64,000 bases of DNA from a virus (IMGVR_UViG_3300034782_000041:10407-74406), one strand, 5' to 3'. Numbered from the stretch's first letter, positions 6,517-59,162 are shown. Numbers and translations are program-made. The notes: generated by a model not told the origin, from the letters alone.

Positions 6517-6778
6517 GGAATTTCAAGTCGAGTCCAAGTGGGGAATGCGCTACGTCAAGGCTGTGCACAAGCCGACGGGACTGCCAATCTCAGCACCAGC
6601 GCACGGCCTAAGTGTCTCATCGGCGGCCGAATGGATTTGTCTTATGGACACTGCGCTCGCGCGGGTAGACTTCGACGACCGCGATAAAGCAATCACGGCG
6701 ATCCAGTCAGTGAACGAGTGCTTCACGCGTAAACCGAGCTGCCCAACGGCGCTACGCAAGTGCGTGAAGAAGTGGTGA
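6461..6778 (+). CDS. hypothetical protein
   Basis: 105-aa ORF; start overlaps the divergent upstream gene. Confidence 0.4.
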   Translation: MAKKEATGVKVRKAKNPDMEFQVESKWGMRYVKAVHKPTGLPISAPAHGLSVSSAAEWICLMDTALARVDFDDRDKAITAIQSVNECFTRKPSCPTALRKCVKKW

Positions 6779-19822: not shown

Positions 19823-19975
19823 CTGCCTCTCCTTCGTCCCCTCGGGGACCGTCAGGAGTATGACGCTACGCGGGCGGGAATATTCGATTCGCAGACGCGA
19901 TTTTTCTTACACGACAATCAACAACGATTCTGCACGGTTAGGACTCTATTGCGTTGGGTTAGCCGCGGAAGGTAC

Positions 19976-20059
19976 AGGAGTCGAACCTGATCCCGTCAGG
20001 GACGCACCGGTTAGCAGCCGGGCTTCGCGCCACCACGAATTTACCTTCCAGGGCGAAAG
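19976..20059 (-). tRNA. tRNA-Ser(GCU), type II
   Basis: Hand fold of reverse complement: acceptor GGAAGGT/ACCTTCC, anticodon loop CUGCUAA, long variable arm, T-loop TTCGACT. Confidence 0.6.
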
Positions 20060-20069
20060 CGGAAGCGGA

Positions 20070-20152
20070 GGGAATCGAACCCCCAAGGCATATGCTCGCT
20101 CGGGTTCAAGCCGAGTGCCGTCACCTGTCGGCTAGCGCTTCCAAAAGTGGTT
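20070..20152 (-). tRNA. tRNA-Ser(UGA), type II
   Basis: Acceptor GGAAGCG/CGCTTCC, anticodon stem CTCGG/CCGAG loop CUUGAAC, long variable arm, T-loop TTCGATT. Confidence 0.6.
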
Positions 20153-20286
20153 CGGAGAACGATGCGCTCGGTTTGTTTAGCGTGTTGCCATTACACCACC
20201 GGTAACCCGGGTTGGAGTCGAACCAACATCTCTCGCTCCTCAAGCGAAGTAACCGAATGCTTTACTACCGAACCGGCGGAGAACGA

Positions 20287-20372
20287 GTGAGTCGAACACT
20301 ATGCGCAGCTGCGCACGCACCGGTTTCCAACCGGGCTCAGGTCCACACCTGATTCATTCTCCAACTGCATGC
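20287..20372 (-). tRNA. tRNA-Ser(GGA), type II
   Basis: Acceptor GGAGAAT/GTTCTCC (G-U at 7-66), anticodon loop UUGGAAA, variable-arm hairpin GCGCAG/CTGCGC. Confidence 0.5.
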
Positions 20373-20405
20373 GGAAGGCAGAGGTCTCGATCCCCAAGCT
20401 TGCGC

Positions 20406-20954
20406 TCACGCTGCTTTCGAGGCAGGCCCAGGCCCCGCCTGGTTTACCTTCCATGTCCATGCACGCCACGCCTCGGGCATGCCGGGCGTCCACGTCACTG
20501 TGATGTGTACGTCAGGCAGCTTCTTTGGCTTCACCGGCTTCGATCGTAGTCGCATGCCGGCTTGTTGTGGCGTTCGTCCACCCTTCTGTTGGTTGCACGC
20601 TACGCAACAGATGACTACGTTCTCCCAGGTCGTTTGCCCGCCGAGCGTTCGCGGCACAACGTGATCATAGGTAGCCTCCAGACGTGGCACTTGATCTCCA
20701 CAGTACTGGCACCTTCCGTGATCGCGTGTGTAGACGTTCTCGCGTGAGAACTTCACGACACGCTTCTTTCGTCGCATCCGCGTGATGAATCGAACGACGG
20801 ATGGCATCTTGATCGAGAACGTCACCGACCGGATGTTTCTGTCGGTGTATTCATCCACGACCTCTACCTTGCCAAGGAAGAGCAAAGTGATTGCACGTTG
20901 CCAGTGGATCCGCGCCACGGGCAAGTAGGACTGATCGAGAACCAACGTGTCCAT
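20406..20954 (-). CDS. HNH homing endonuclease
   Basis: CQYCGDQVP..DHVVPRTLGGQTTWENVVICCVACNQQKG (HNH with CxxC/CxxC zinc site); inserted inside the tRNA array. Confidence 0.75.
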   Translation of the reverse strand: MDTLVLDQSYLPVARIHWQRAITLLFLGKVEVVDEYTDRNIRSVTFSIKMPSVVRFITRMRRKKRVVKFSRENVYTRDHGRCQYCGDQVPRLEATYDHVVPRTLGGQTTWENVVICCVACNQQKGGRTPQQAGMRLRSKPVKPKKLPDVHITVTWTPGMPEAWRAWTWKVNQAGPGPASKAA

Positions 20955-20981
20955 GACTCGCTCCTTTCTGGTTGCTGTCCG

Positions 20982-21061
20982 TGCTCAGAGAGGGACTCGA
21001 ACCCTCACGCCGAAGCATCCGCTTTTGAGACGGACGTGTATGCCTATTCCACCATCTGAGC
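20982..21061 (-). tRNA. tRNA-Leu(CAA), type II
   Basis: Acceptor GCTCAGA/TCTGAGC, anticodon stem TCCGT/GCGGA loop CUCAAAA, 11-nt variable arm, T-arm GAGGG-TTCGAGT-CCCTC. Confidence 0.6.
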
Positions 21062-21067
21062 TTATCG

Positions 21068-21146
21068 TGCCCGAGGAGAGATTTGAACTCTCACGCCGAA
21101 GCAGCTGGGTTTAGGCCAGCCGTGTATGCCCTTCCACCACTCGGGC
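21068..21146 (-). tRNA. tRNA-Leu(UAA), type II
   Basis: Acceptor GCCCGAG/CTCGGGC, anticodon stem GCTGG/CCAGC loop CCUAAAC, T-loop TTCAAAT. Confidence 0.6.
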
Positions 21147-21150
21147 GTCG

Positions 21151-21224
21151 TACCACCGGAGAGACTCGAACTCTCAACACCTCGGTCCTTAGCCGAGACC
21201 CTCTTCCAATTGGGGCACGGTGGC
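21151..21224 (-). tRNA. type-I (short variable arm) tRNA with anticodon AAG (leucine CUU family), A73
   Basis: Acceptor GCCACCG/CGGTGGT (G1-U72), D-arm CCCC-AATTGGAAGA-GGG, anticodon stem CTCGG/CCGAG loop CUAAGGA, 5-nt variable region. Confidence 0.45.
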
Positions 21225-21226
21225 AG

Positions 21227-21297
21227 CTCCGGCTCAGGGACTCGAACCCCGATACCACGATCCAGAGTCGTGGGTCCTACCGTTAGACGAAGCCGGA
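21227..21297 (-). tRNA. tRNA-Gln(CUG)
   Basis: Acceptor TCCGGCT/AGCCGGA, anticodon stem CACGA/TCGTG loop CUCUGGA. Confidence 0.55.
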
Positions 21298-21301
21298 ATG
21301 G

Positions 21302-21372
21302 TTCGGGGTCTGGGACTCGAACCCAGATTGCTCGGGTCAAAGCCGAGTATCTTGCCATTGGATCAACCCCGA
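21302..21372 (-). tRNA. tRNA-Gln(UUG)
   Basis: Acceptor TCGGGGT/ACCCCGA, anticodon stem CTCGG/CCGAG loop CUUUGAC. Confidence 0.55.
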
Positions 21373-21376
21373 GTAG

Positions 21377-21450
21377 AGCGGACGATGGGACTCGAACCCA
21401 TACGACGAGGTTGGAAGCCTCGCATGCTGGCCGTTGAACATCACGCCCGC
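21377..21450 (-). tRNA. tRNA-Gly(UCC)
   Basis: Acceptor GCGGGCG/CGTCCGC, anticodon stem CGAGG/CCTCG loop CUUCCAA. Confidence 0.55.
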
Positions 21451-21454
21451 TTTG

Positions 21455-21525
21455 TGCCCCCGGAAGGACTCGAACCCTCGTAGCCTGATTAAAGGTCAGG
21501 TATGACACCACTTCATCACGGAGGC
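21455..21525 (-). tRNA. tRNA-Lys(UUU)
   Basis: Acceptor GCCTCCG/CGGGGGC, anticodon stem CCTGA/TCAGG loop CCUUUAA. Confidence 0.55.
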
Positions 21526-21528
21526 GAG

Positions 21529-21602
21529 TACCTGTGGTCAGACTCGAACTGACACTGTACGCGTTCTGAGCGCGCTCCCTCTTCCAATTGGGGTACACAG
21601 GC
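21529..21602 (-). tRNA. type-I (short variable arm) tRNA with anticodon CAG (leucine CUG family), A73
   Basis: Acceptor GCCTGTG/CACAGGT, same D-arm as the AAG tRNA (CCCC-AATTGGAAGA-GGG), anticodon stem GCGCG/CGCGT loop CUCAGAA. Confidence 0.45.
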
Positions 21603-21727
21603 AAAAGATGCAGCCCATCGCCCGATGGAGACCTTCTCTCCAATCCCTTAGAGCCCGTGAATCGATCCACTAGGGACGGTCACTACAACCGCCCTGCCGA
21701 AACTTCGACTAGCTGTGGCCGCATCAG

Positions 21728-21800
21728 TACCGGTCCTGAGAATCGAACTCAGCGCGTCCTGCTTGTAAGGCAGGTCCCACCCCCAGGTGAGCTGACCGGC
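21728..21800 (-). tRNA. tRNA-Val(UAC)
   Basis: Acceptor GCCGGTC/GACCGGT, anticodon stem CCTGC/GCAGG loop CUUACAA, T-arm CTGAG-TTCGATT-CTCAG. Confidence 0.5.
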
Positions 21801-21804
21801 GTGG

Positions 21805-21875
21805 TCGCAGCGGAGGGAATCGGACCCTCACGGTCTCGCTTATGAGACGAGCCGCCTAACCCGTAGGTCGCTGCG
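21805..21875 (-). tRNA. tRNA-Met(CAU), elongator-type, T-loop UCCGAUU
   Basis: Acceptor CGCAGCG/CGCTGCG, anticodon stem CTCGT/GCGAG loop CUCAUAA; could alternatively be Ile2 (lysidine) tRNA. Confidence 0.5.
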
Positions 21876-21878
21876 TGG

Positions 21879-21950
21879 TAGCGGGGGCTGGAATTGCACC
21901 AGCGTGGTCAGGCTTATGAGACCTGACAGGTAACTAGCAACCTCCCCGCA
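21879..21950 (-). tRNA. second CAU-anticodon tRNA (Met/fMet/Ile2) with non-canonical T-loop UGCAAUU and 1-72 mismatch
   Basis: Acceptor TGCGGGG/CCCCGCT (U1.U72), anticodon stem CAGGT/GCCTG loop CUCAUAA, T-arm GCTGG-TGCAATT-CCAGC. Confidence 0.4.
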
Positions 21951-21954
21951 AAAG

Positions 21955-22022
21955 CGCCTCCATCAGGAATCGAACCCGAGTAGCTGCTTTAGAAGAGCAG
22001 CGCCTCATCCATGAGTAGAGGC
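21955..22022 (-). tRNA. tRNA-Arg(UCU)
   Basis: Acceptor GCCTCTA/TGGAGGC, anticodon stem CTGCT/AGCAG loop CUUCUAA; compact D-arm. Confidence 0.5.
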
Positions 22023-22025
22023 AAG

Positions 22026-22093
22026 TACCACTGGACGGAGTCGAACCATCTCTTCAGGTTTAGGAGACCCGAATCTGTTCCACCAGCAGTGGC
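22026..22093 (-). tRNA. tRNA-Arg(CCU)
   Basis: Acceptor GCCACTG/CAGTGGT, anticodon stem CGGGT/ACCTG loop CUCCUAA. Confidence 0.5.
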
Positions 22094-22097
22094 ATCG

Positions 22098-22166
22098 TGC
22101 CTCTACGAGGAATCGAACCTCGTCTTCCGAGTTCGTAGCCCGGAGTCCGGCTCCACCGGCAGAGGC
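22098..22166 (-). tRNA. tRNA-Arg(ACG)
   Basis: Acceptor GCCTCTG/TAGAGGC, anticodon stem CCGGG/CTCGG loop CUACGAA. Confidence 0.5.
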
Positions 22167-22173
22167 GAATCAG

Positions 22174-22245
22174 AGCCCAAGGACAGAATCGAACTGTCAT
22201 CTCTCGCGTACCGGGCGAGTGCTCTCTCCATTGAGCTACGAGGGC
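22174..22245 (-). tRNA. tRNA-Thr(GGU) (two acceptor-stem mismatches, C33)
   Basis: D-arm GCTC-AATGGA-GAGC, anticodon stem CTCGC/GCGAG loop CCGGUAC, T-arm GACAG-TTCGATT-CTGTC; acceptor GCCCTCG/CTTGGGC has mismatches at 5-68 and 6-67. Confidence 0.4.
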
Positions 22246-22249
22246 GTCG

Positions 22250-22321
22250 TGGACCGCCGGGGAATCGAACCCCGATCTTCTGGGTGCAAACCAGATGTGT
22301 TCCCGTTATCACTAGCAGCCC
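22250..22321 (-). tRNA. tRNA-Ala(UGC) with G3-U70
   Basis: Acceptor GGGCTGC/GCGGTCC, D-arm GTG-ATAACGGGAA-CAC, anticodon stem TCTGG/CCAGA loop UUUGCAC, A73. Confidence 0.55.
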
Positions 22322-22325
22322 TTAG

Positions 22326-22345
22326 GCGGGCCTTCCACCCGCTCG
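22326..22345. repeat. intergenic hairpin repeat copy 1 (GCGGGCCTTCCACCCGCTCG)
   Basis: 20-nt motif with GCGGG/CCCGC stem, identical copy at 22662-22681; both sit in tRNA spacers. Confidence 0.55.
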
Positions 22346-22418
22346 TGGACACCGTCGGGATCGAACCGACCACATCCGGCTTGCAAGGCCAGATCGCCCC
22401 CTTGGTACATGGGTGCCC
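22346..22418 (-). tRNA. second tRNA-Ala(UGC)-like copy with G3-U70 (weak D-stem)
   Basis: Acceptor GGGCACC/GGTGTCC, anticodon stem CTGGC/GCCGG loop CUUGCAA, T-loop TTCGATC. Confidence 0.4.
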
Positions 22419-22585
22419 ATAACGACGAGGAACTAACCCCGCCGACACGTTTTTGTCTCCTCCTCGAACAGAGGCGTCCCTCCTCAGAGGCCAATACTGG
22501 AAGCTCCCAGCAAGTCCGCAGCTAGCTAAGCCCGACTACGCTGTCTGTTCGCCCAGCAGCAAGGCAGGTACGTGCTCCTGCATTG

Positions 22586-22657
22586 TGGACCAACTGGGAA
22601 TCGAACCCAGATCTCTGCCGTGCGAAAGCAGCGTGTTCCCTTTATCACTATTGGCCC
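22586..22657 (-). tRNA. tRNA-Ala(CGC) with G3-U70
   Basis: Acceptor GGGCCAA/TTGGTCC, D-arm GTG-ATAAAGGGAA-CAC, anticodon stem CTGCT/GGCAG loop UUCGCAC. Confidence 0.55.
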
Positions 22658-22661
22658 TTGT

Positions 22662-22681
22662 GCGGGCCTTCCACCCGCTCG
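22662..22681. repeat. intergenic hairpin repeat copy 2 (GCGGGCCTTCCACCCGCTCG)
   Basis: Identical to 22326-22345. Confidence 0.55.
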
Positions 22682-22704
22682 GAGACGCGTCCGTCTCTTG
22701 GCCG

Positions 22705-22777
22705 TGCCACTCCTCGGTAACGCTCCGAGCCCTCCGGCTTTTCAGGCCGGCGCTTCCACTTGGTTAGCTTGGGTGGC
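22705..22777 (-). tRNA. tRNA-Phe(GAA) with non-canonical T-loop AGCGUUA
   Basis: Acceptor GCCACCC/GAGTGGC (one mismatch), D-stem GCT/AGC, anticodon stem CCGGC/GCCGG loop CUGAAAA, T-arm CTCGG-AGCGTTA-CCGAG. Confidence 0.45.
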
Positions 22778-22788
22778 AAACGGATTTG

Positions 22789-22859
22789 TAGCCCAGCTAG
22801 GAGTTGAACCTAGATCACTCGCTTATAAGGCAAGCGCCCTGCCGTTGTGCTACTGGGCC
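22789..22859 (-). tRNA. tRNA-Ile(UAU)
   Basis: Acceptor GGCCCAG/CTGGGCT (G1-U72), anticodon stem CTTGC/GCGAG loop CUUAUAA, T-arm CTAGG-TTCAACT-CCTAG. Confidence 0.4.
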
Positions 22860-22931
22860 AACAAATGCGGGCCTCGCACCCGCTCGGAGGTGACGGTTTA
22901 GGGCTTCGCTTTCGCGCCACACCTCTAGCCG

Positions 22932-23003
22932 CGGAGCTGACGGGAATTGAACCCGCCTCGCCGGTTAGACAGACCGGTAGCCTCACCAGATGCTTACAGC
23001 TCC
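22932..23003 (-). tRNA. tRNA-Asp(GUC)
   Basis: Perfect acceptor GGAGCTG/CAGCTCC, anticodon stem CCGGT/ACCGG loop CUGUCUA, T-loop TTCAATT, G73. Confidence 0.6.
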
Positions 23004-23045
23004 AAACGCGAGCGTGCTCCCTTGTTACACCACGGCGCGGCGACC

Positions 23046-23069
23046 GCAACCGACAGGAATCGAACCTGC
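23046..23069 (-). other. orphan tRNA 3-prime half (acceptor strand + T-arm) without room for a 5-prime half
   Basis: ACAGG-AATCGAA-CCTGC T-arm signature preceded by 7-nt acceptor-like strand; only 28 nt before the next tRNA. Confidence 0.3.
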
Positions 23070-23097
23070 ACTTCCCGCTCTAACTATGACTTCTTGG

Positions 23098-23169
23098 GGT
23101 GAGCGAGAAGAATCGAACTTCCATCACGCGGGCCACAACCGCGCGCTCTGCCATTGAGCTACGCCCACC
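23098..23169 (-). tRNA. tRNA-His(GUG) with G-1 and C73
   Basis: G(-1)+GTGGGCG/CGCTCAC acceptor, D-arm GCTC-AATGGC-AGAGC, anticodon stem CGCGG/CCGCG loop UUGUGGC. Confidence 0.65.
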
Positions 23170-23174
23170 ATCAG

Positions 23175-23245
23175 TTCCCCCGGACAGAGTTGCGCTGTCA
23201 TCTCTCGCTTATCAAGCGAGTGCTCTCCTGTTGAGCTACAGGGGA
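23175..23245 (-). tRNA. tRNA-Ile(GAU) with non-canonical T-loop CGCAACU
   Basis: Acceptor TCCCCTG/CGGGGGA, D-arm GCTC-AACAGG-AGAGC, anticodon stem CTCGC/GCGAG loop UUGAUAA, T-arm GACAG-CGCAACT-CTGTC. Confidence 0.5.
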
Positions 23246-23249
23246 TCAG

Positions 23250-23321
23250 TCGGAGTGGCTGGGATCGAACCAGCGATCTCATGGTCCCGAACCATGCGCG
23301 ATACCGCTTCGCTACACCCCG
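23250..23321 (-). tRNA. tRNA-Pro(CGG)
   Basis: Acceptor CGGGGTG/CACTCCG, D-stem GCGA/TCGC, anticodon stem CATGG/CCATG loop UUCGGGA. Confidence 0.55.
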
Positions 23322-23322
23322 G

Positions 23323-23395
23323 TCGGAGCGACAGGACTCGAACCTGCATGCTCTTGGTCCCAAACCAAGCGGGTTGCCAAATACCCTACGCTCCG
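23323..23395 (-). tRNA. tRNA-Pro(UGG)
   Basis: Perfect acceptor CGGAGCG/CGCTCCG, D-stem GGGT/ACCC, anticodon stem CTTGG/CCAAG loop UUUGGGA. Confidence 0.6.
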
Positions 23396-23399
23396 GTTG

Positions 23400-23471
23400 T
23401 GACCCCGCCGAGAATCGAACTCGGATTGCTGGCTTGAAAGACCAGCTGCTTGACCGTTAGCAGACGAGGCC
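23400..23471 (-). tRNA. tRNA-Glu(UUC)
   Basis: Acceptor GGCCTCG/CGGGGTC (two G-U), D-stem TGCT/AGCA, anticodon stem CTGGT/GCCAG loop CUUUCAA. Confidence 0.5.
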
Positions 23472-23515
23472 AGAGGACGTGTTTTCCCTCGTCACTGGGA
23501 ATGCTTGCTTTGCGG

Positions 23516-23586
23516 AGGCTTCGGTGGGAGTCGAACCCACGATACAGGTTTTGCAGACCCGTGCCTTGCCACTTGACTACGAAGCC
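23516..23586 (-). tRNA. tRNA-Cys(GCA)
   Basis: Perfect acceptor GGCTTCG/CGAAGCC, anticodon stem CGGGT/ACCTG loop CUGCAAA, T-arm GTGGG-TTCGACT-CCCAC. Confidence 0.55.
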
Positions 23587-23588
23587 AG

Positions 23589-24098
23589 TCAGGTCAGGGG
23601 CATCCCTCTGTACTCCGCTACGGCACGAAGGAACGCCTCCCCCCTATCTCCAGTGTGCTCCTGTCGATGGCAATTGGAACACAGGAGTTCGCATTTCAGA
23701 ACTTCCTTCTTGACTACAGCCCACGCTCGGTTGCTGTTCTCGCTGATCTGAAAGTCCTTCTTACCGTTGTGGTGGAACTCAAAGGCTGCTGGACTCCCTG
23801 AGAAACCACAGCGTTGACACTTTCCGCCAAGGAGGGTTATAGCCGCAACCTTCACCCGATATCGCCTAATCCTAGATCGACAGGTGTAGCATACATCCCC
23901 TTTCCCGGGGACTAGCTTCCCTGAGCACAACCTACACCTAGTCGGCTTACGTCTTATATCGTGGATGTGGATCTTCTTCCGATTGTTAGCCCCAAATGGG
24001 GAGCAGGAAACGCAGTACCTACGACTCGACAGGTTCCGCACCTTCCCGTCTATGACTATTCGAGTAGGAAACTCTTCGTGGCACTTGGCGCATTCCAT
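23589..24098 (-). CDS. HNH endonuclease (second copy inside tRNA array)
   Basis: CQRCGF..FEFHHNGKKD..LLCSNCHRQEH (HNH with Cys4 zinc site); stop codon 2 nt from the tRNA-Cys 5-prime end. Confidence 0.6.
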   Translation of the reverse strand: MECAKCHEEFPTRIVIDGKVRNLSSRRYCVSCSPFGANNRKKIHIHDIRRKPTRCRLCSGKLVPGKGDVCYTCRSRIRRYRVKVAAITLLGGKCQRCGFSGSPAAFEFHHNGKKDFQISENSNRAWAVVKKEVLKCELLCSNCHRQEHTGDRGEAFLRAVAEYRGMPLT

Positions 24099-24156
24099 AG
24101 CTCTAAGGTACCTGAGAGTACGATCCTGCGTTAGTCAACGAGGGCCTTTCCTTTGA

Positions 24157-24230
24157 CTACCAGTAGCTCCCTCGATCCGACTTGAACGGATAACCCCCTG
24201 GTTAACGGCCAGGTGCTGCTACCAATTGAG
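24157..24230 (-). tRNA. tRNA-Asn(GUU)
   Basis: Perfect acceptor TCCCTCG/CGAGGGA, anticodon stem CCTGG/CCAGG loop CCGUUAA (C33), T-loop TTCAAGT. Confidence 0.5.
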
Positions 24231-24234
24231 CTAC

Positions 24235-24306
24235 GAGGGATCAGAGCTGGTGGAGGGAATCGAACCCCCAACCTACTGCTTACAAGGCAGTTGCACTTCC
24301 CTTGTG
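24235..24306 (-). tRNA. tRNA-Thr(UGU)
   Basis: Perfect acceptor GCTGGTG/CACCAGC, D-stem GCAC/GTGC, anticodon stem ACTGC/GCAGT loop CUUGUAA. Confidence 0.6.
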
Positions 24307-24313
24307 CTACACC

Positions 24314-24399
24314 AGCGAGCTAGTGGGGAACGGTGGAATCGAACCACATGCCCAAATGGGAAACGGTTTACAGCCGCTCGCCGGACCATCCAGCCTTAT
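24314..24399 (-). tRNA. tRNA-Tyr(GUA), type II
   Basis: Acceptor GGGGAGC/GTTCCCC, anticodon stem AGCGG/CCGTT loop CUGUAAA, variable-arm hairpin CCCA-TT-TGGG, T-loop TTCGATT; D-region irregular. Confidence 0.45.
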
Positions 24400-24403
24400 G
24401 ACG

Positions 24404-24474
24404 CTCCCCGCGGTGCCTCTGGAAGGAATTGCACCCTCATCAACGGGGTAAGAACCCGGTATTCTCCTGTTGAA
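24404..24474 (-). tRNA. tRNA-Lys(CUU) with non-canonical T-loop UGCAAUU
   Basis: Perfect acceptor GCCTCTG/CAGAGGC, D-stem GTTC/GAAT, anticodon loop UUCUUAC, T-arm GAGGG-TGCAATT-CCTTC. Confidence 0.4.
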
Positions 24475-24487
24475 CTACAGAGGCAAG

Positions 24488-24575
24488 ATGATCCTCCGAT
24501 GAGAAGGATCATGTACTGTCTTCGTCATCGTCAGCTATTCGATTACCAGAGGCTCGATTCACAAGCTATCGAGCC
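24488..24575. other. two strong 8-bp hairpins in a tRNA-free spacer of the array
   Basis: ATGATCCT-ccgatgaga-AGGATCAT (24488-24512) and GGCTCGAT-tcacaagct-ATCGAGCC (24551-24575). Confidence 0.45.
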
Positions 24576-24598
24576 AACATTCCAGAGAACGTTCGCGG

Positions 24599-24670
24599 AG
24601 CGGGCGACGGGAATCGAACCCGCCAGGGCCTGCCTGGCAGACAGGTGTCACGCCTTGTGACTTCACCCGC
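24599..24670 (-). tRNA. tRNA-Gly(GCC)
   Basis: Acceptor GCGGGTG/CGCCCGC, D-stem GTCA/TGAC, anticodon stem CCTGT/GCAGG loop CUGCCAG. Confidence 0.55.
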
Positions 24671-24686
24671 GTATTTCTTTCAGTGG

Positions 24687-24757
24687 AGCCGACGGACAGA
24701 GTCGAACTGTCATCCCCGCTTTACGAAAGCGGTGCACTACCGTTGTGCTACGAAGGC
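24687..24757 (-). tRNA. tRNA-Thr(CGU) (two acceptor-stem mismatches)
   Basis: D-stem GCAC/GTGC, anticodon stem CCGCT/AGCGG loop UUCGUAA, T-arm GACAG-TTCGACT-CTGTC; acceptor GCCTTCG/CGTCGGC mismatched at 4-69 and 5-68. Confidence 0.4.
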
Positions 24758-24771
24758 AGGTCTATGAATGG

Positions 24772-24838
24772 CGGGCCGCCGAGGAATCGAACCCCGCTGG
24801 CCGGATTTGGAGCCCAGCCTGATCCCAGATCGCAACCC
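24772..24838 (-). tRNA. tRNA-Trp(CCA)
   Basis: Acceptor GGGTTGC/GCGGCCC (two G-U), anticodon stem CTGGG/TCCGG loop CUCCAAA, G73; compact D-arm. Confidence 0.45.
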
Positions 24839-25060
24839 AGAAACCAAGAAAGCCAGGGAGACCTTTGTCTGCCCTGGCTTCCTAGTGTGGTCATGTTCTC
24901 TAGTTAGCCAGGGCGTGTCCTCCAGAGATTGGCCTGAATATCGTACGAGGACACGACGCTAAACGCACATGTACCCAGGCCCAACCCTTTGGGCTTTGGT
25001 TCGTGGTGCGTTTGGGTCGCGGCTAACATCACTCTCAGAATACAGGTACTCTACAAACTG

Positions 25061-57462: not shown

Positions 57463-57473
57463 CGATCCTCCGG

Positions 57474-57546
57474 TACACCCGGAGGGAATCGAACCCCCAC
57501 CTTGCAGCTCCACAGACTGCACGCTCGGCCTTCGAGCTACGGGTGT
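57474..57546 (-). tRNA. isolated tRNA with anticodon GUG (His-like) but no G-1
   Basis: Perfect acceptor ACACCCG/CGGGTGT, D-arm GCTC-GAAGGCC-GAGC, anticodon stem GCAGT/GCTGC loop CUGUGGA, T-arm GGGGG-TTCGATT-CCCTC, A73. Confidence 0.45.
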
Positions 57547-57570: not shown

Positions 57571-58629
57571 CTATGACACACGTAGAATCTCCAACACGTC
57601 AGCTGGCGTGAGACAAAACCATTCGGTTCGTTCGTCACGGGCTTTCTGGTCGGCGTATCTCGCGTGTAGATATTTCTCTTGTTCTCGCGTTCCGGGGATA
57701 GTGCCTAGCAGCCGCAGCGTATCAGCGTTGCCGGTCTGTAGTGCGGCTAGCCGCTTCGCAGGTGTACTATCCGTCCATCCGATTTTGACACGCCCACGCC
57801 CATCCTGGATGAGATAGATAGCACCTGTGTTGTCATCCTCGGATTGAAACATCGTCGCCCAAGCGTCTTTCGCGTGACGCGCATAGAGCAAGTGCTCGAA
57901 CGCGTCTGGGCAGGACTCAGCGCGATCAAGCGGATCGCTTTCGTGGTCGTCGATCCTTTTTTCGTCAACTTCCGTCAGCCGGTAGTTGATGATCCCAAAA
58001 GTGTCCCACCGGTTGGTGCGCCTCGGCCAGGGTATATGACACAGCGGCGGCAGTGTCCACAGGCGACGGTTATCGTACGTTACTTGCTCGGGTCGAAACC
58101 AAGGAGGCAAACTCGACGTGTAACGTGACAAGTCAACGACGTGCTCATCGTTGCGGAGATCGGGGTGATCACGGAGTAACGTATCAACGCGTTTGACAAT
58201 CTTGTCGTGATACTTACGAGCAGTGTCACGTAGGATTAGCGCTTGGTCGCCTCCGAGTGCAATGTGCAATCCGAGATAGAGCACAATCTGTTCGTGGACG
58301 TCCGACGTCGTGCATGTCGAGAACCAGTCTACGACAGGACGTGGGATCAATGTCACGTAGATCGTACCCGTGTCATGTGCTGTCTTCGGATCGAAGAACG
58401 TTCGCGTGACCACAGCCTGGTGGAGGCGTTCTAACGCAAGTACACCGGCAATGTTGTTAGGACACGCTACGACACTTGAATCCGATTGGCAGCGGAGATG
58501 ACAGACCTCTCCCCACTCTTTCCGGCCATCGAGCCGCGCGGTAGGCACATAGCCCTGCCTACGCCAATACCGGAAGCTGTGCAGGTCATCGAATGGTGGC
58601 CGATCTAGGTCACAGGGTGATGTGAGCAT
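57571..58629 (-). CDS. protein with C-terminal T5orf172 (GIY-YIG superfamily) domain
   Basis: C-terminal GAIYLIQDGRGRVKIGWTDSTPAKRLAALQTGNADTLRLLGTIPGT..EKYLHARYADQ..RTEWF matches the T5orf172 domain; start trimmed from 58872 to MLTSPCDL. Confidence 0.5.
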   Translation of the reverse strand: MLTSPCDLDRPPFDDLHSFRYWRRQGYVPTARLDGRKEWGEVCHLRCQSDSSVVACPNNIAGVLALERLHQAVVTRTFFDPKTAHDTGTIYVTLIPRPVVDWFSTCTTSDVHEQIVLYLGLHIALGGDQALILRDTARKYHDKIVKRVDTLLRDHPDLRNDEHVVDLSRYTSSLPPWFRPEQVTYDNRRLWTLPPLCHIPWPRRTNRWDTFGIINYRLTEVDEKRIDDHESDPLDRAESCPDAFEHLLYARHAKDAWATMFQSEDDNTGAIYLIQDGRGRVKIGWTDSTPAKRLAALQTGNADTLRLLGTIPGTREQEKYLHARYADQKARDERTEWFCLTPADVLEILRVS

Positions 58630-58664
58630 GGCCTGACTATACTGGCCAGGCCTGACGTATTCTG

Positions 58665-59162
58665 TCAGGTCGCCGAAACCTCCTTGCAGATGTTGCACAA
58701 CTCCTCGTCGAACATAGGAGTTTCCCACACGTACGGCTTGCGGCGCCCGTTCTGCGTGACCTCCTCGTAGCGTCGTCGTTGTACGGCTTCCTCGTCGAGG
58801 AACTTGCGGAGAAATGCTGCTTGGTCGTCGAGCGTGTCGATGACCGAGCTGGCGAAGAGATACTCGGTCCACTTGCGTTCCTGGCCGGGCCCGAGCCGCT
58901 TCTGGTATGTGAGAAAGTCAGCGTCCTCGAACCGGTTGCGTGCGCGCATGGCCTCGACATGTTGCTGCGCTACGGATCGCCAGCCGCCGTGGTACTTCTG
59001 ATAGCTCTGGCAGTGGAGCTTTCCCCGCATGTGCGAAATCATCATGCAGAGGACTGTTGCTTTGCGTCCGCTGGCCTGTTTGACCGCAGCTTTCAGGCGG
59101 TCTCGCACTGCACGTCGTTGGGCCCATACATCTTCGGTAATCTCTGCTGTTGCTTGCATCAT
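58665..59162 (-). CDS. hypothetical protein
   Basis: 165-aa ORF with balanced composition. Confidence 0.4.
   Translation of the reverse strand: MMQATAEITEDVWAQRRAVRDRLKAAVKQASGRKATVLCMMISHMRGKLHCQSYQKYHGGWRSVAQQHVEAMRARNRFEDADFLTYQKRLGPGQERKWTEYLFASSVIDTLDDQAAFLRKFLDEEAVQRRRYEEVTQNGRRKPYVWETPMFDEELCNICKEVSAT

Follow-up and report, generated by a model that had tools for sequence, protein, structure and literature searches.

In the usual tRNA elbow, U54 of the T-loop pairs with A58, pseudouridine 55 (Psi55) makes the turn, and G18 of the D-loop inserts into the T-loop and bonds Psi55. To our knowledge, U55 (as Psi55) and G18 count as nearly universal features of tRNA, and such exceptions as are known are specialised molecules. 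The viral sequence IMGVR_UViG_3300034782_000041:10407-74406, a stretch of 64,000 nucleotides (nt) referred to here in its entirety as the window, carries a large tRNA array in which several genes have T-loops without the T-Psi-C signature, and it raises the question of whether these are working tRNAs with a different elbow or relics of former ones. It is argued below that three of them, tRNA-Lys(CUU), tRNA-Ile(GAU) and tRNA-Phe(GAA), are probably genuine and working, and that they possess an alternative elbow which recurs in other genomes. The array and its five principal variant genes are:

19965-24845, minus strand: array of about 41 tRNA genes representing all 20 amino acids, compiled with ARAGORN and the Rfam tRNA model.
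24412-24484, minus strand: tRNA-Lys(CUU), T-arm GAGGG-TGCAATT-CCTTC, with the T-loop UGCAAUU at 24427-24433.
23174-23245, minus strand: tRNA-Ile(GAU), T-arm GACAG-CGCAACT-CTGTC, with the T-loop CGCAACU at 23188-23194 (C54, G55).
22704-22777, minus strand: tRNA-Phe(GAA), T-arm CTCGG-AGCGTTA-CCGAG, with the T-loop AGCGUUA at 22718-22724 (A54, G55, U58).
21876-21950, minus strand: tRNA-like gene with a CAU anticodon (CAU#1), T-arm GCTGG-TGCAATT-CCAGC, with the T-loop UGCAAUU at 21892-21898.
21802-21875, minus strand: tRNA-like gene with a CAU anticodon (CAU#2), T-arm GAGGG-TCCGATT-CCCTC, with the T-loop UCCGAUU at 21818-21824.

The initial annotation had listed these five loops, and ARAGORN at a relaxed threshold together with direct reading of the sequence recovered exactly the same ones. 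None of the five contains T54-Psi55-C56. Position 55 is C in CAU#2 and G in the other four, C56 is retained throughout, and U54 gives way to C in Ile and to A in Phe. Because position 55 is G, Psi55 is impossible in Lys, Ile and Phe, and because position 54 is C or A, 5-methyluridine 54 (m5U54) is likewise impossible in Ile and Phe. The suggestion that recognition by TruB and TrmA would be altered is thus borne out as far as sequence can tell, with U55 missing in four variant genes and U54 in two (Ile and Phe). The parallel suggestion about the elongation factor draws no support from these sequences. The D-loops differ as well. Those of Lys (AACAGGA, 24465-24471, read as A18 G19 G20 A21), Ile (AACAGGA, 23226-23232) and Phe (ACCAAGUGGA, 22755-22764) do not present G18-G19 but retain G19 with position 18 reading A. 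In other respects the three are regular, with 7-nt anticodon loops, stems of standard length, the discriminator A73 and the G19:C56 combination; a single mismatch (C6/A67) is present in the acceptor stem of Phe.

Against the Rfam model RF00005 (gathering score 29 bits), Ile scores 59.9, Lys 59.5 and Phe 36.0 bits, each aligned end to end over model positions 1-71. The minimum-free-energy fold is a cloverleaf for Ile and Phe, and ARAGORN draws a cloverleaf for Lys and Phe. An alternative fold with a canonical T-arm was a possibility left open by the initial annotation; none emerged, since the covariance model places the T-arm as described in all three. Reading GCAA as a GNRA tetraloop on an extended T-stem was also considered and set aside, as it leaves a closing U/U or C/C plus a bulge, and the D-loop covariation presented below favours the T-loop fold. 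Default ARAGORN reports 32 genes in the array, all on the minus strand, and overlooks Ile(GAU), Phe(GAA), CAU#1 and CAU#2. The Rfam model contributes Ile(GAU) (23175-23245), a more permissive scan (E ≤ 10) contributes Phe(GAA) (22705-22777), which the whole-window scan at the gathering score had passed over, and relaxed-threshold ARAGORN contributes Tyr(GUA), Arg(ACG), the two CAU genes and a weak Ser(CGA). As four window genes are missed at default settings, automated annotation would under-report the tRNA set of this phage.

The three tRNAs correspond to the codons that the phage uses most. Within ten long open reading frames (ORFs) of the window, AAG outnumbers AAA (170 to 78), TTC outnumbers TTT (148 to 44) and ATC outnumbers ATT and ATA (230 to 56 and 21), and Lys(CUU), Phe(GAA) and Ile(GAU) each read the most-used codon of their family. 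Phe(GAA) and Ile(GAU) are, in addition, the sole genes in the window for their respective anticodons.

The two CAU genes are of a different quality. Neither gives an Rfam tRNA match, even at E ≤ 10. Their acceptor, anticodon and T-stems are good, but their D-arms are defective. In CAU#1, only one of the four D-stem pairs forms in the canonical register, and the usual U8:A14 pair is lost because positions 8 and 14 are A and C; it also has a U1/U72 mismatch, a UAGU D-loop and an encoded ACCA, and it resembles G55-type Met tRNAs mismatched at 1-72 that are found on viral contigs and in Reyranella. CAU#2 has a perfect 7-bp acceptor stem and an encoded ACCA, but only one linker base and a D-loop of 5 nt (CGGGU); its UCCGAUU loop is also present in a tRNA-Pro of viral contig L010. 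Both genes may be degenerate. The earlier statements that the D-arms are good and that the variant tRNAs look functional rather than decayed therefore stand for Lys, Ile and Phe, the second of them on the strength of model scores and covariation. For the CAU pair the first fails and the second is doubtful.

Evidence that the unusual T-loops belong to a coherent design comes from covariation with the D-loop. The sample consisted of 503 unique tRNAs called by default ARAGORN in the window and in IMG/VR viral contigs. Part of it derives from viral contigs that have an Ile or Phe anticodon arm in common, a selection blind to the T-loop, and part was gathered with the T-arm pattern GGGTGCAATTCCYTC, which places no constraint on the D-loop and matched at least 120 contigs. 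More than 30 clean cloverleaf tRNAs were present among the first 120 matches listed for this pattern, from many anticodon families and mostly encoding CCA. In the contigs selected blind to the T-loop, 17 of 167 unique tRNAs have non-canonical T-loops, the types that recur in phage arrays including AUCGUUA, AUCGAAA, AGCAUAG and UCCGAUU.

GG is missing from the D-loop in 45 of the 49 G55 tRNAs, compared with 16 of the 447 U55 tRNAs (Fisher p = 1.8e-45), and in 43 of those 45 it is replaced by A-G. The four G55 tRNAs which do contain GG (D-loops AGGAGAA, AGGTAGTA, AGGAGACCA and AACAGGA of the window) have A-G in the right register anyway. The numbers of D-loop bases before and after A-G in G55 tRNAs are distributed like those around G-G in U55 tRNAs (3/2 being commonest, then 3/3, 4/2 and 4/3), and for this reason A-G is taken to occupy positions 18-19. 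The association holds outside the search pattern, GG being missing in 26 of the 28 G55 tRNAs whose T-arm does not match it, and if ARAGORN rewards canonical features, as we assume, a detection bias would appear to oppose the link between 18 and 55 rather than create it. The Watson-Crick tertiary pair 19:56 served as a positive control and covaries as it should, with G-A in the D-loop of all 10 U56 tRNAs. These tRNAs (T-loop UUUGA; L008, L009, L044, L109, L121) form a small group of their own in which 19:56 has switched from G:C to A:U.

A second rule concerns the closing pair of the T-loop. U58 is found only alongside A54 (15 of 15; Fisher p = 2.9e-24). The A54/U58 tRNAs with U55 retain GG, while the two with G55 (L003 Ile and L092 His, both AGCAU) have A-G, so that the two rules combine. 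Paired states of 18/55 and 54/58 recur at 25 loci and in about 20 anticodon types. They support the proposal that T-loop/D-loop tertiary contacts are altered, with G55 going together with A18 and A54 with U58. The loops are not the idiosyncrasies of one virus that they had seemed, for they fall into recurrent classes found in cellular genomes also. G55 tRNAs are interspersed with canonical ones in viral arrays, and they make up 4 of the approximately 41 genes here against 1 of 167 in contigs unselected for T-loop type.

Two further groups were seen on viral contigs. One is a second recurrent phage class with the T-loop AUCGU(U/A)N, in which A54 and U58 are swapped and U55 and the GG D-loop are normal; it is represented at L004, L005, L010, L011, L013, L034, L049, L056, L057, L099 and L129, and in Asp, Lys, His, Ile, Val, Phe, Gln and Asn tRNAs. 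The other comprises recurring AUCGAAA loops (A54, A58, A60) that are like those of eukaryotic initiator tRNA.

The window variants follow both rules. Canonical TTC[G/A]A T-loops are present in about 35 array genes (relaxed ARAGORN), and canonical members have the D-loop AACGGTA, other G55 tRNAs AACAGTA, and Lys(CUU) and Ile(GAU) AACAGGA. In the latter, taking A-G as 18-19 leaves three bases before and two after, the commonest register, while taking G-G would leave one base after, a rare register. For Phe(GAA), the RF00005 alignment sets A-G-U beneath the consensus G18-G19-U20, and its AGCGU joins G55 with the A54:U58 swap in the same way as the Ile and His tRNAs of L003 and L092. The two Lys genes of the array are also informative. 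The T-stem GAGGG/CCTTC is identical in Lys(CUU) and in the canonical Lys(UUU) at 21454-21525, and their acceptor stems are similar, yet they differ in both loops (AGTGGTG with TTCGAGT in UUU, AACAGGA with TGCAATT in CUU). An A18/G55 alternative-elbow class is accordingly defined here by a T-loop reading U/C54-G55-C56-R57-A58 and a D-loop with A-G at 18-19. Lys and Ile show the two features together. In CAU#1 the T-loop is of this kind and the D-loop reads UAGU, while Phe combines G55 and a D-loop A-G-U with A:U at 54:58.

Structural work on T-loops offers a plausible explanation for this pairing of A18 with G55. The T-loop is described as a U:A trans Watson-Crick/Hoogsteen pair with a UNR or GNR turn; its closing pair is usually U:A (92%) and occasionally C:A (4%), and the base at position 2, a G or U, contacts the intercalated base and acts as a clamp on the opposite backbone (PMC2615604). 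In the T-loops of FMN and cobalamin riboswitches, UGNRA accounts for 88.7% and CGNRA for 10.9%, full loops of the form (UGHAA)UU function best, and the intercalator, an adenosine in 99.96%, is bonded to the sugar edge of the position-2 G (bioRxiv 10.1101/2022.12.26.521914). An A-G-Y-R-U pentaloop with an A:U closing pair is also active in a class-II cobalamin riboswitch (PMC6158498). The pentaloops UGCAA (Lys and CAU#1) and CGCAA (Ile) conform to YGNRA, and UGCAAUU fits (UGHAA)UU; AGCGU of Phe lies outside YGNRA and matches the A-G-Y-R-U variant. It may be proposed, then, that G55 forms a turn of the GNR type (a "G-clamp"), that the D-loop adenosine A18 would intercalate in place of G18, and that the outer G19:C56 pair would be preserved, the closing 54:58 pair being U:A in Lys, C:A in Ile and a reversed A:U in Phe. 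Under this model, a riboswitch-type YGNRA T-loop with an adenosine intercalator would have been transplanted into tRNA as a solution to the 18/55 contact. With G19:C56 preserved, readers of the elbow surface such as RNase P, the ribosome and the CCA enzyme should still fit.

Cellular genomes carry the A18/G55 design as well. When each prokaryotic species, represented by one genome, was scanned with an extended T-arm pattern, 26 loci were returned. Among them is a tRNA-Arg(CCU) adjoining tRNA-Pro(CGG), with 17 distinct genes in metagenome-assembled genomes of Patescibacteria type (Daviesbacteria, Levyibacteriota and others). In 16 of the 17 distinct sequences, the D-loop AG[T/C]AGA[T/C/A]A accompanies the T-loop TGCAATT, and in the remaining one the D-loop AATGGACA accompanies TTCGATT. 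There are also compensatory changes in the acceptor and anticodon stems among these orthologues. This amounts to a double switch within one orthologous gene, and the context implies ordinary cellular use. The design was found in addition in a tRNA-Thr of Woesearchaeota, in tRNA-Met of Omnitrophota and Reyranella, and in an array on a Myxococcota contig, while a cultured case is Brevundimonas phage Kikimora, whose annotated tRNA-Met has the T-loop TGCGAAT and the D-loop AGTCCAGTA. In a Patescibacteria contig (L168), a match to the G55 T-arm pattern at 6580-6600, where ARAGORN calls no tRNA, lies beside a canonical Arg(CCU) at 6623-6696; the G55 and canonical versions of this gene may stand side by side there.

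Comparison with described systems places the three window tRNAs close to bacterial and phage elongator tRNA. They share with RF00005 the cloverleaf, the stem lengths, 7-nt anticodon and T-loops, G53:C61, C56, R57, G19 and A73, and differ from it in having G for U55, A for G18, C (Ile) or A (Phe) for U54 and U for A58 (Phe). With the YGNRA T-loops of the FMN and cobalamin riboswitches and the GNR-type T-loops of rRNA and RNase P they have pentaloops in common and, judged by covariation, the partner adenosine; unlike the riboswitch motif, theirs is located in a tRNA T-arm, its partner is the D-loop and the next pair is the tRNA pair G19:C56. The non-proteogenic tRNA-Gly of staphylococci, which lacks G18, G19 and U55, is excluded from translation (PMC13443448, PMC4574755) and feeds cell-wall synthesis. 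Its forms NP1-3 are likewise natural tRNAs without U55 and G18, and are poorly modified, but G19 is lost in them (U19 in NP2), their EF-Tu determinants are weak, their anticodon loop is shortened, and they are limited to Gly(UCC). Lys, Ile and Phe retain G19:C56 and 7-nt anticodon loops with the anticodons CUU, GAU and GAA, and so do not belong with them. The tRNA-Pyl has G55, a compact core and no 19:56 contact (PMC1851642). It shares G55, U54:A58 and purine 57 with the window genes, as well as the lack of T-Psi-C and G18G19, and is set apart by one linker base, a 5-nt D-loop, a 6-bp anticodon stem, a 3-nt variable loop and a CUA anticodon. Lys, Ile and Phe instead have two linker bases, a D-loop 7-10 nt long and a variable loop of 4 nt; CAU#2 is partly Pyl-like in its linker and D-loop but has a CAU anticodon and a 4-nt variable loop. 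The eukaryotic initiator T-loop (A54, A60) has A54 in common with Phe, which differs in combining A54:U58 with G55 in place of A54/A58/A60; AUCGAAA loops of the initiator type are present in viral Glu, His and Ile tRNAs, and AUCGAGA in the weak Ser(CGA) candidate.

Several observations count against regarding the three genes as working tRNAs with a common elbow, and some of them would suit decay. The covariation counts rest on loop boundaries set by ARAGORN, on a sample gathered in part by pattern and on sequences that are phylogenetically non-independent, and the three-dimensional geometry proposed above would follow from the 18/55 covariation and from riboswitch T-loops. Phe scores only 36 bits with its C6/A67 mismatch, and its D-loop also has a GG, so that the A18 register depends on analogy and on how the covariance model aligns it. 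C54 of Ile is rarer still, and the sample contained no other natural CGCAA tRNA. Nor was an orthologous array found: among 50,697 phage records, megablast with the 5-kb array matched a single 73-nt Ala tRNA only, and a sensitive blastn search with Lys(CUU) and Ile(GAU) matched nothing; back-translated patterns of the neighbouring SNF2 helicase had no match in IMG/VR, and its best homologues (60% and 49% identity) are on contigs without a nearby array; the Lys anticodon-arm pattern returned one unrelated viral contig, and metagenome scans with D-arm and anticodon patterns for Ile and Lys returned no match. The Myxococcota contig (L176), with G55-type Phe and Ile(GAU), was considered as a distant relative and rejected, as identity between genes of the same anticodon is 0.5-0.7 and the gene order differs. 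Fast turnover of the array could moreover make the odd loops stages on the way to loss. It does contain clearly degenerate members (CAU#1 with its broken D-stem, Tyr with acceptor mismatches and Arg genes with tiny D-loops), so that some decay has taken place here; the D-loop of CAU#2 is likewise tiny, 23040-23094 holds an orphan T-arm, and Rfam gives no match for two of the five variant genes. Against this, Lys and Ile at about 60 bits are on a par with canonical members, and Phe and Ile(GAU) are the only genes in the window for the preferred Phe and Ile codons of the phage. Random decay would not be expected to produce paired changes at 18/55 and at 54/58, still less at 25 loci and in cellular Arg(CCU) orthologues with compensatory stem changes, and these paired changes argue that the variant genes are quite unlikely to be decaying pseudogenes.

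An RNA outside translation, with a cell-wall type of use or serving as decoy or primer, is a very unlikely identity for the variants. tRNAs without U55 are often specialised, as in staphylococcal tRNA-Gly (PMC13443448) and tRNA-Pyl (PMC1851642), and CAU#2 has the linker and D-loop of the latter. Lys, Ile and Phe nevertheless keep G19:C56, the 7-nt anticodon loop, A73 and standard stems, and they fill otherwise empty slots in the 20-amino-acid set; the T-stem of Lys(CUU) is that of Lys(UUU), and members of the class are found in all amino acid families and among cellular Arg(CCU) genes that appear to be single. Adaptation to conflict with the host, by evading nucleases or toxins that act on the T-loop or elbow or by freedom from host TruB and TrmA, is compatible with working tRNAs but is in itself unlikely. 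T-loop-cutting toxins exist, for example a Burkholderia CdiA-CT whose cut falls between positions 54 and 55, and G55 tRNAs are readily found in viral contigs, mixed among canonical ones and more frequent in this array than in unselected contigs. On the other side, no tRNA repair, tRNA modification or nuclease-inhibitor gene was recognised beside the array, and the design is present in ordinary single-copy genes of Patescibacteria, Woesearchaeota and Omnitrophota, from which it follows that it is not phage-specific. A broader and similarly doubtful proposal is that the A18/G55 elbow, with or without A54:U58, might be a second and largely unrecognised architecture for fully functional tRNAs of every amino acid family, favoured by phages for its removal of the Psi55/G18 contact, which would leave their tRNAs independent of host TruB and unseen by host nucleases or sensors of the T-loop and elbow; were it correct, the occurrence in Patescibacteria and DPANN archaea would reflect the same pressure or exchange with their viruses. 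The preferred reading remains that Lys(CUU), Ile(GAU) and Phe(GAA) are genuine tRNAs with a recurrent alternative elbow, which would be expressed, aminoacylated and used in translation.

No description of the A18/G55 class was found in the open-access literature, which is not proof of its novelty. Its interest is that positions 18 and 55 are replaced together in tRNAs of ordinary appearance for many amino acids, which occur both in phages and in certain uncultured bacteria and archaea. They provide a natural double-mutant series for the tRNA elbow and connect the tRNA T-loop to the riboswitch type, and they predict a tRNA set that works without Psi55 and, in part, without m5U54.

With regard to the rest of the array, all three Ala genes have G3-U70 and a G1-U72 pair is called in 6 of the approximately 41 genes, in agreement with what had been reported of both features. 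Other elements of the array are:

20406-20954, minus strand: HNH endonuclease ORF interrupting the array.
23589-24098, minus strand: second HNH endonuclease ORF interrupting the array.
20371-20452, minus strand: weak candidate tRNA-Ser(CGA) with the T-loop AUCGAGA, called by relaxed ARAGORN only, with mismatched D and anticodon stems.

The Ser(CGA) candidate overlaps the 3' end of the first HNH ORF and may be a tRNA disrupted by insertion of the HNH gene. The array also has a tRNA-Ile(UAU) (22788-22859, minus strand; 58 bits in Rfam). This anticodon is rare in bacteria and would decode AUA directly without the need for lysidine; AUA is the least used Ile codon in the sampled ORFs (21 of 307). 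A second tRNA-His(GUG) (57472-57546, minus strand; default ARAGORN) is isolated, 33 kb away from the array, and adjoins an ORF (57571-58872, minus strand) with a T5orf172/MUG113 domain (GIY-YIG-like).

The neighbours of the array are phage replication genes, encoding the SNF2 helicase, a family A DNA polymerase, a primase and other helicases. Homologues of the SNF2 helicase are present on metagenomic contigs of up to 620 kb, which fits a large phage as the source, although the phage records searched with the array gave no close relative. Among the window ORFs tested, no tRNA-modifying, tRNA-repair or CCA-adding enzyme was recognised. An ORF at 30633-33239 (minus strand, 868 amino acids) has no PHROG match but matches the shoulder domain of the Major Vault Protein (E = 3e-30) as well as a vault repeat domain, and is an unusual protein for a phage.

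Three elements in the intervals between tRNA genes should also be mentioned. The orphan T-arm at 23040-23094 (minus strand) is canonical (GCAGG-TTCGATT-CCTGT), lies in the His/Asp interval without a full cloverleaf and is probably a tRNA fragment; a 94-nt "Val(CAC)" called here by ARAGORN overlaps His and looks spurious. The 124-nt spacer between Val(UAC) and Leu(CAG) (21603-21726, minus strand) gives no Rfam match but has a closed fold of -50.4 kcal/mol with a terminal stem of 9 bp and a T-arm-like hairpin (GUGGAUCGAUUCAC) inside, and could be an interrupted tRNA or another small RNA. Finally, the hairpin GAGCGGGTGGAAGGCCCGC is present three times on the minus strand (22326-22344, 22662-22680 and 22867-22885, the third copy with two mismatches), 4-8 nt upstream of Ala(UGC), Ala(CGC) and Ile(UAU) respectively, a number of matches reached in 0 of 100 shuffles. 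Its stem of 5-6 bp and loop of UGGAAGG or UGCGAGG resemble an isolated T-arm of the G55 type (UGNRA), and it may be a processing signal or the remnant of a tRNA.

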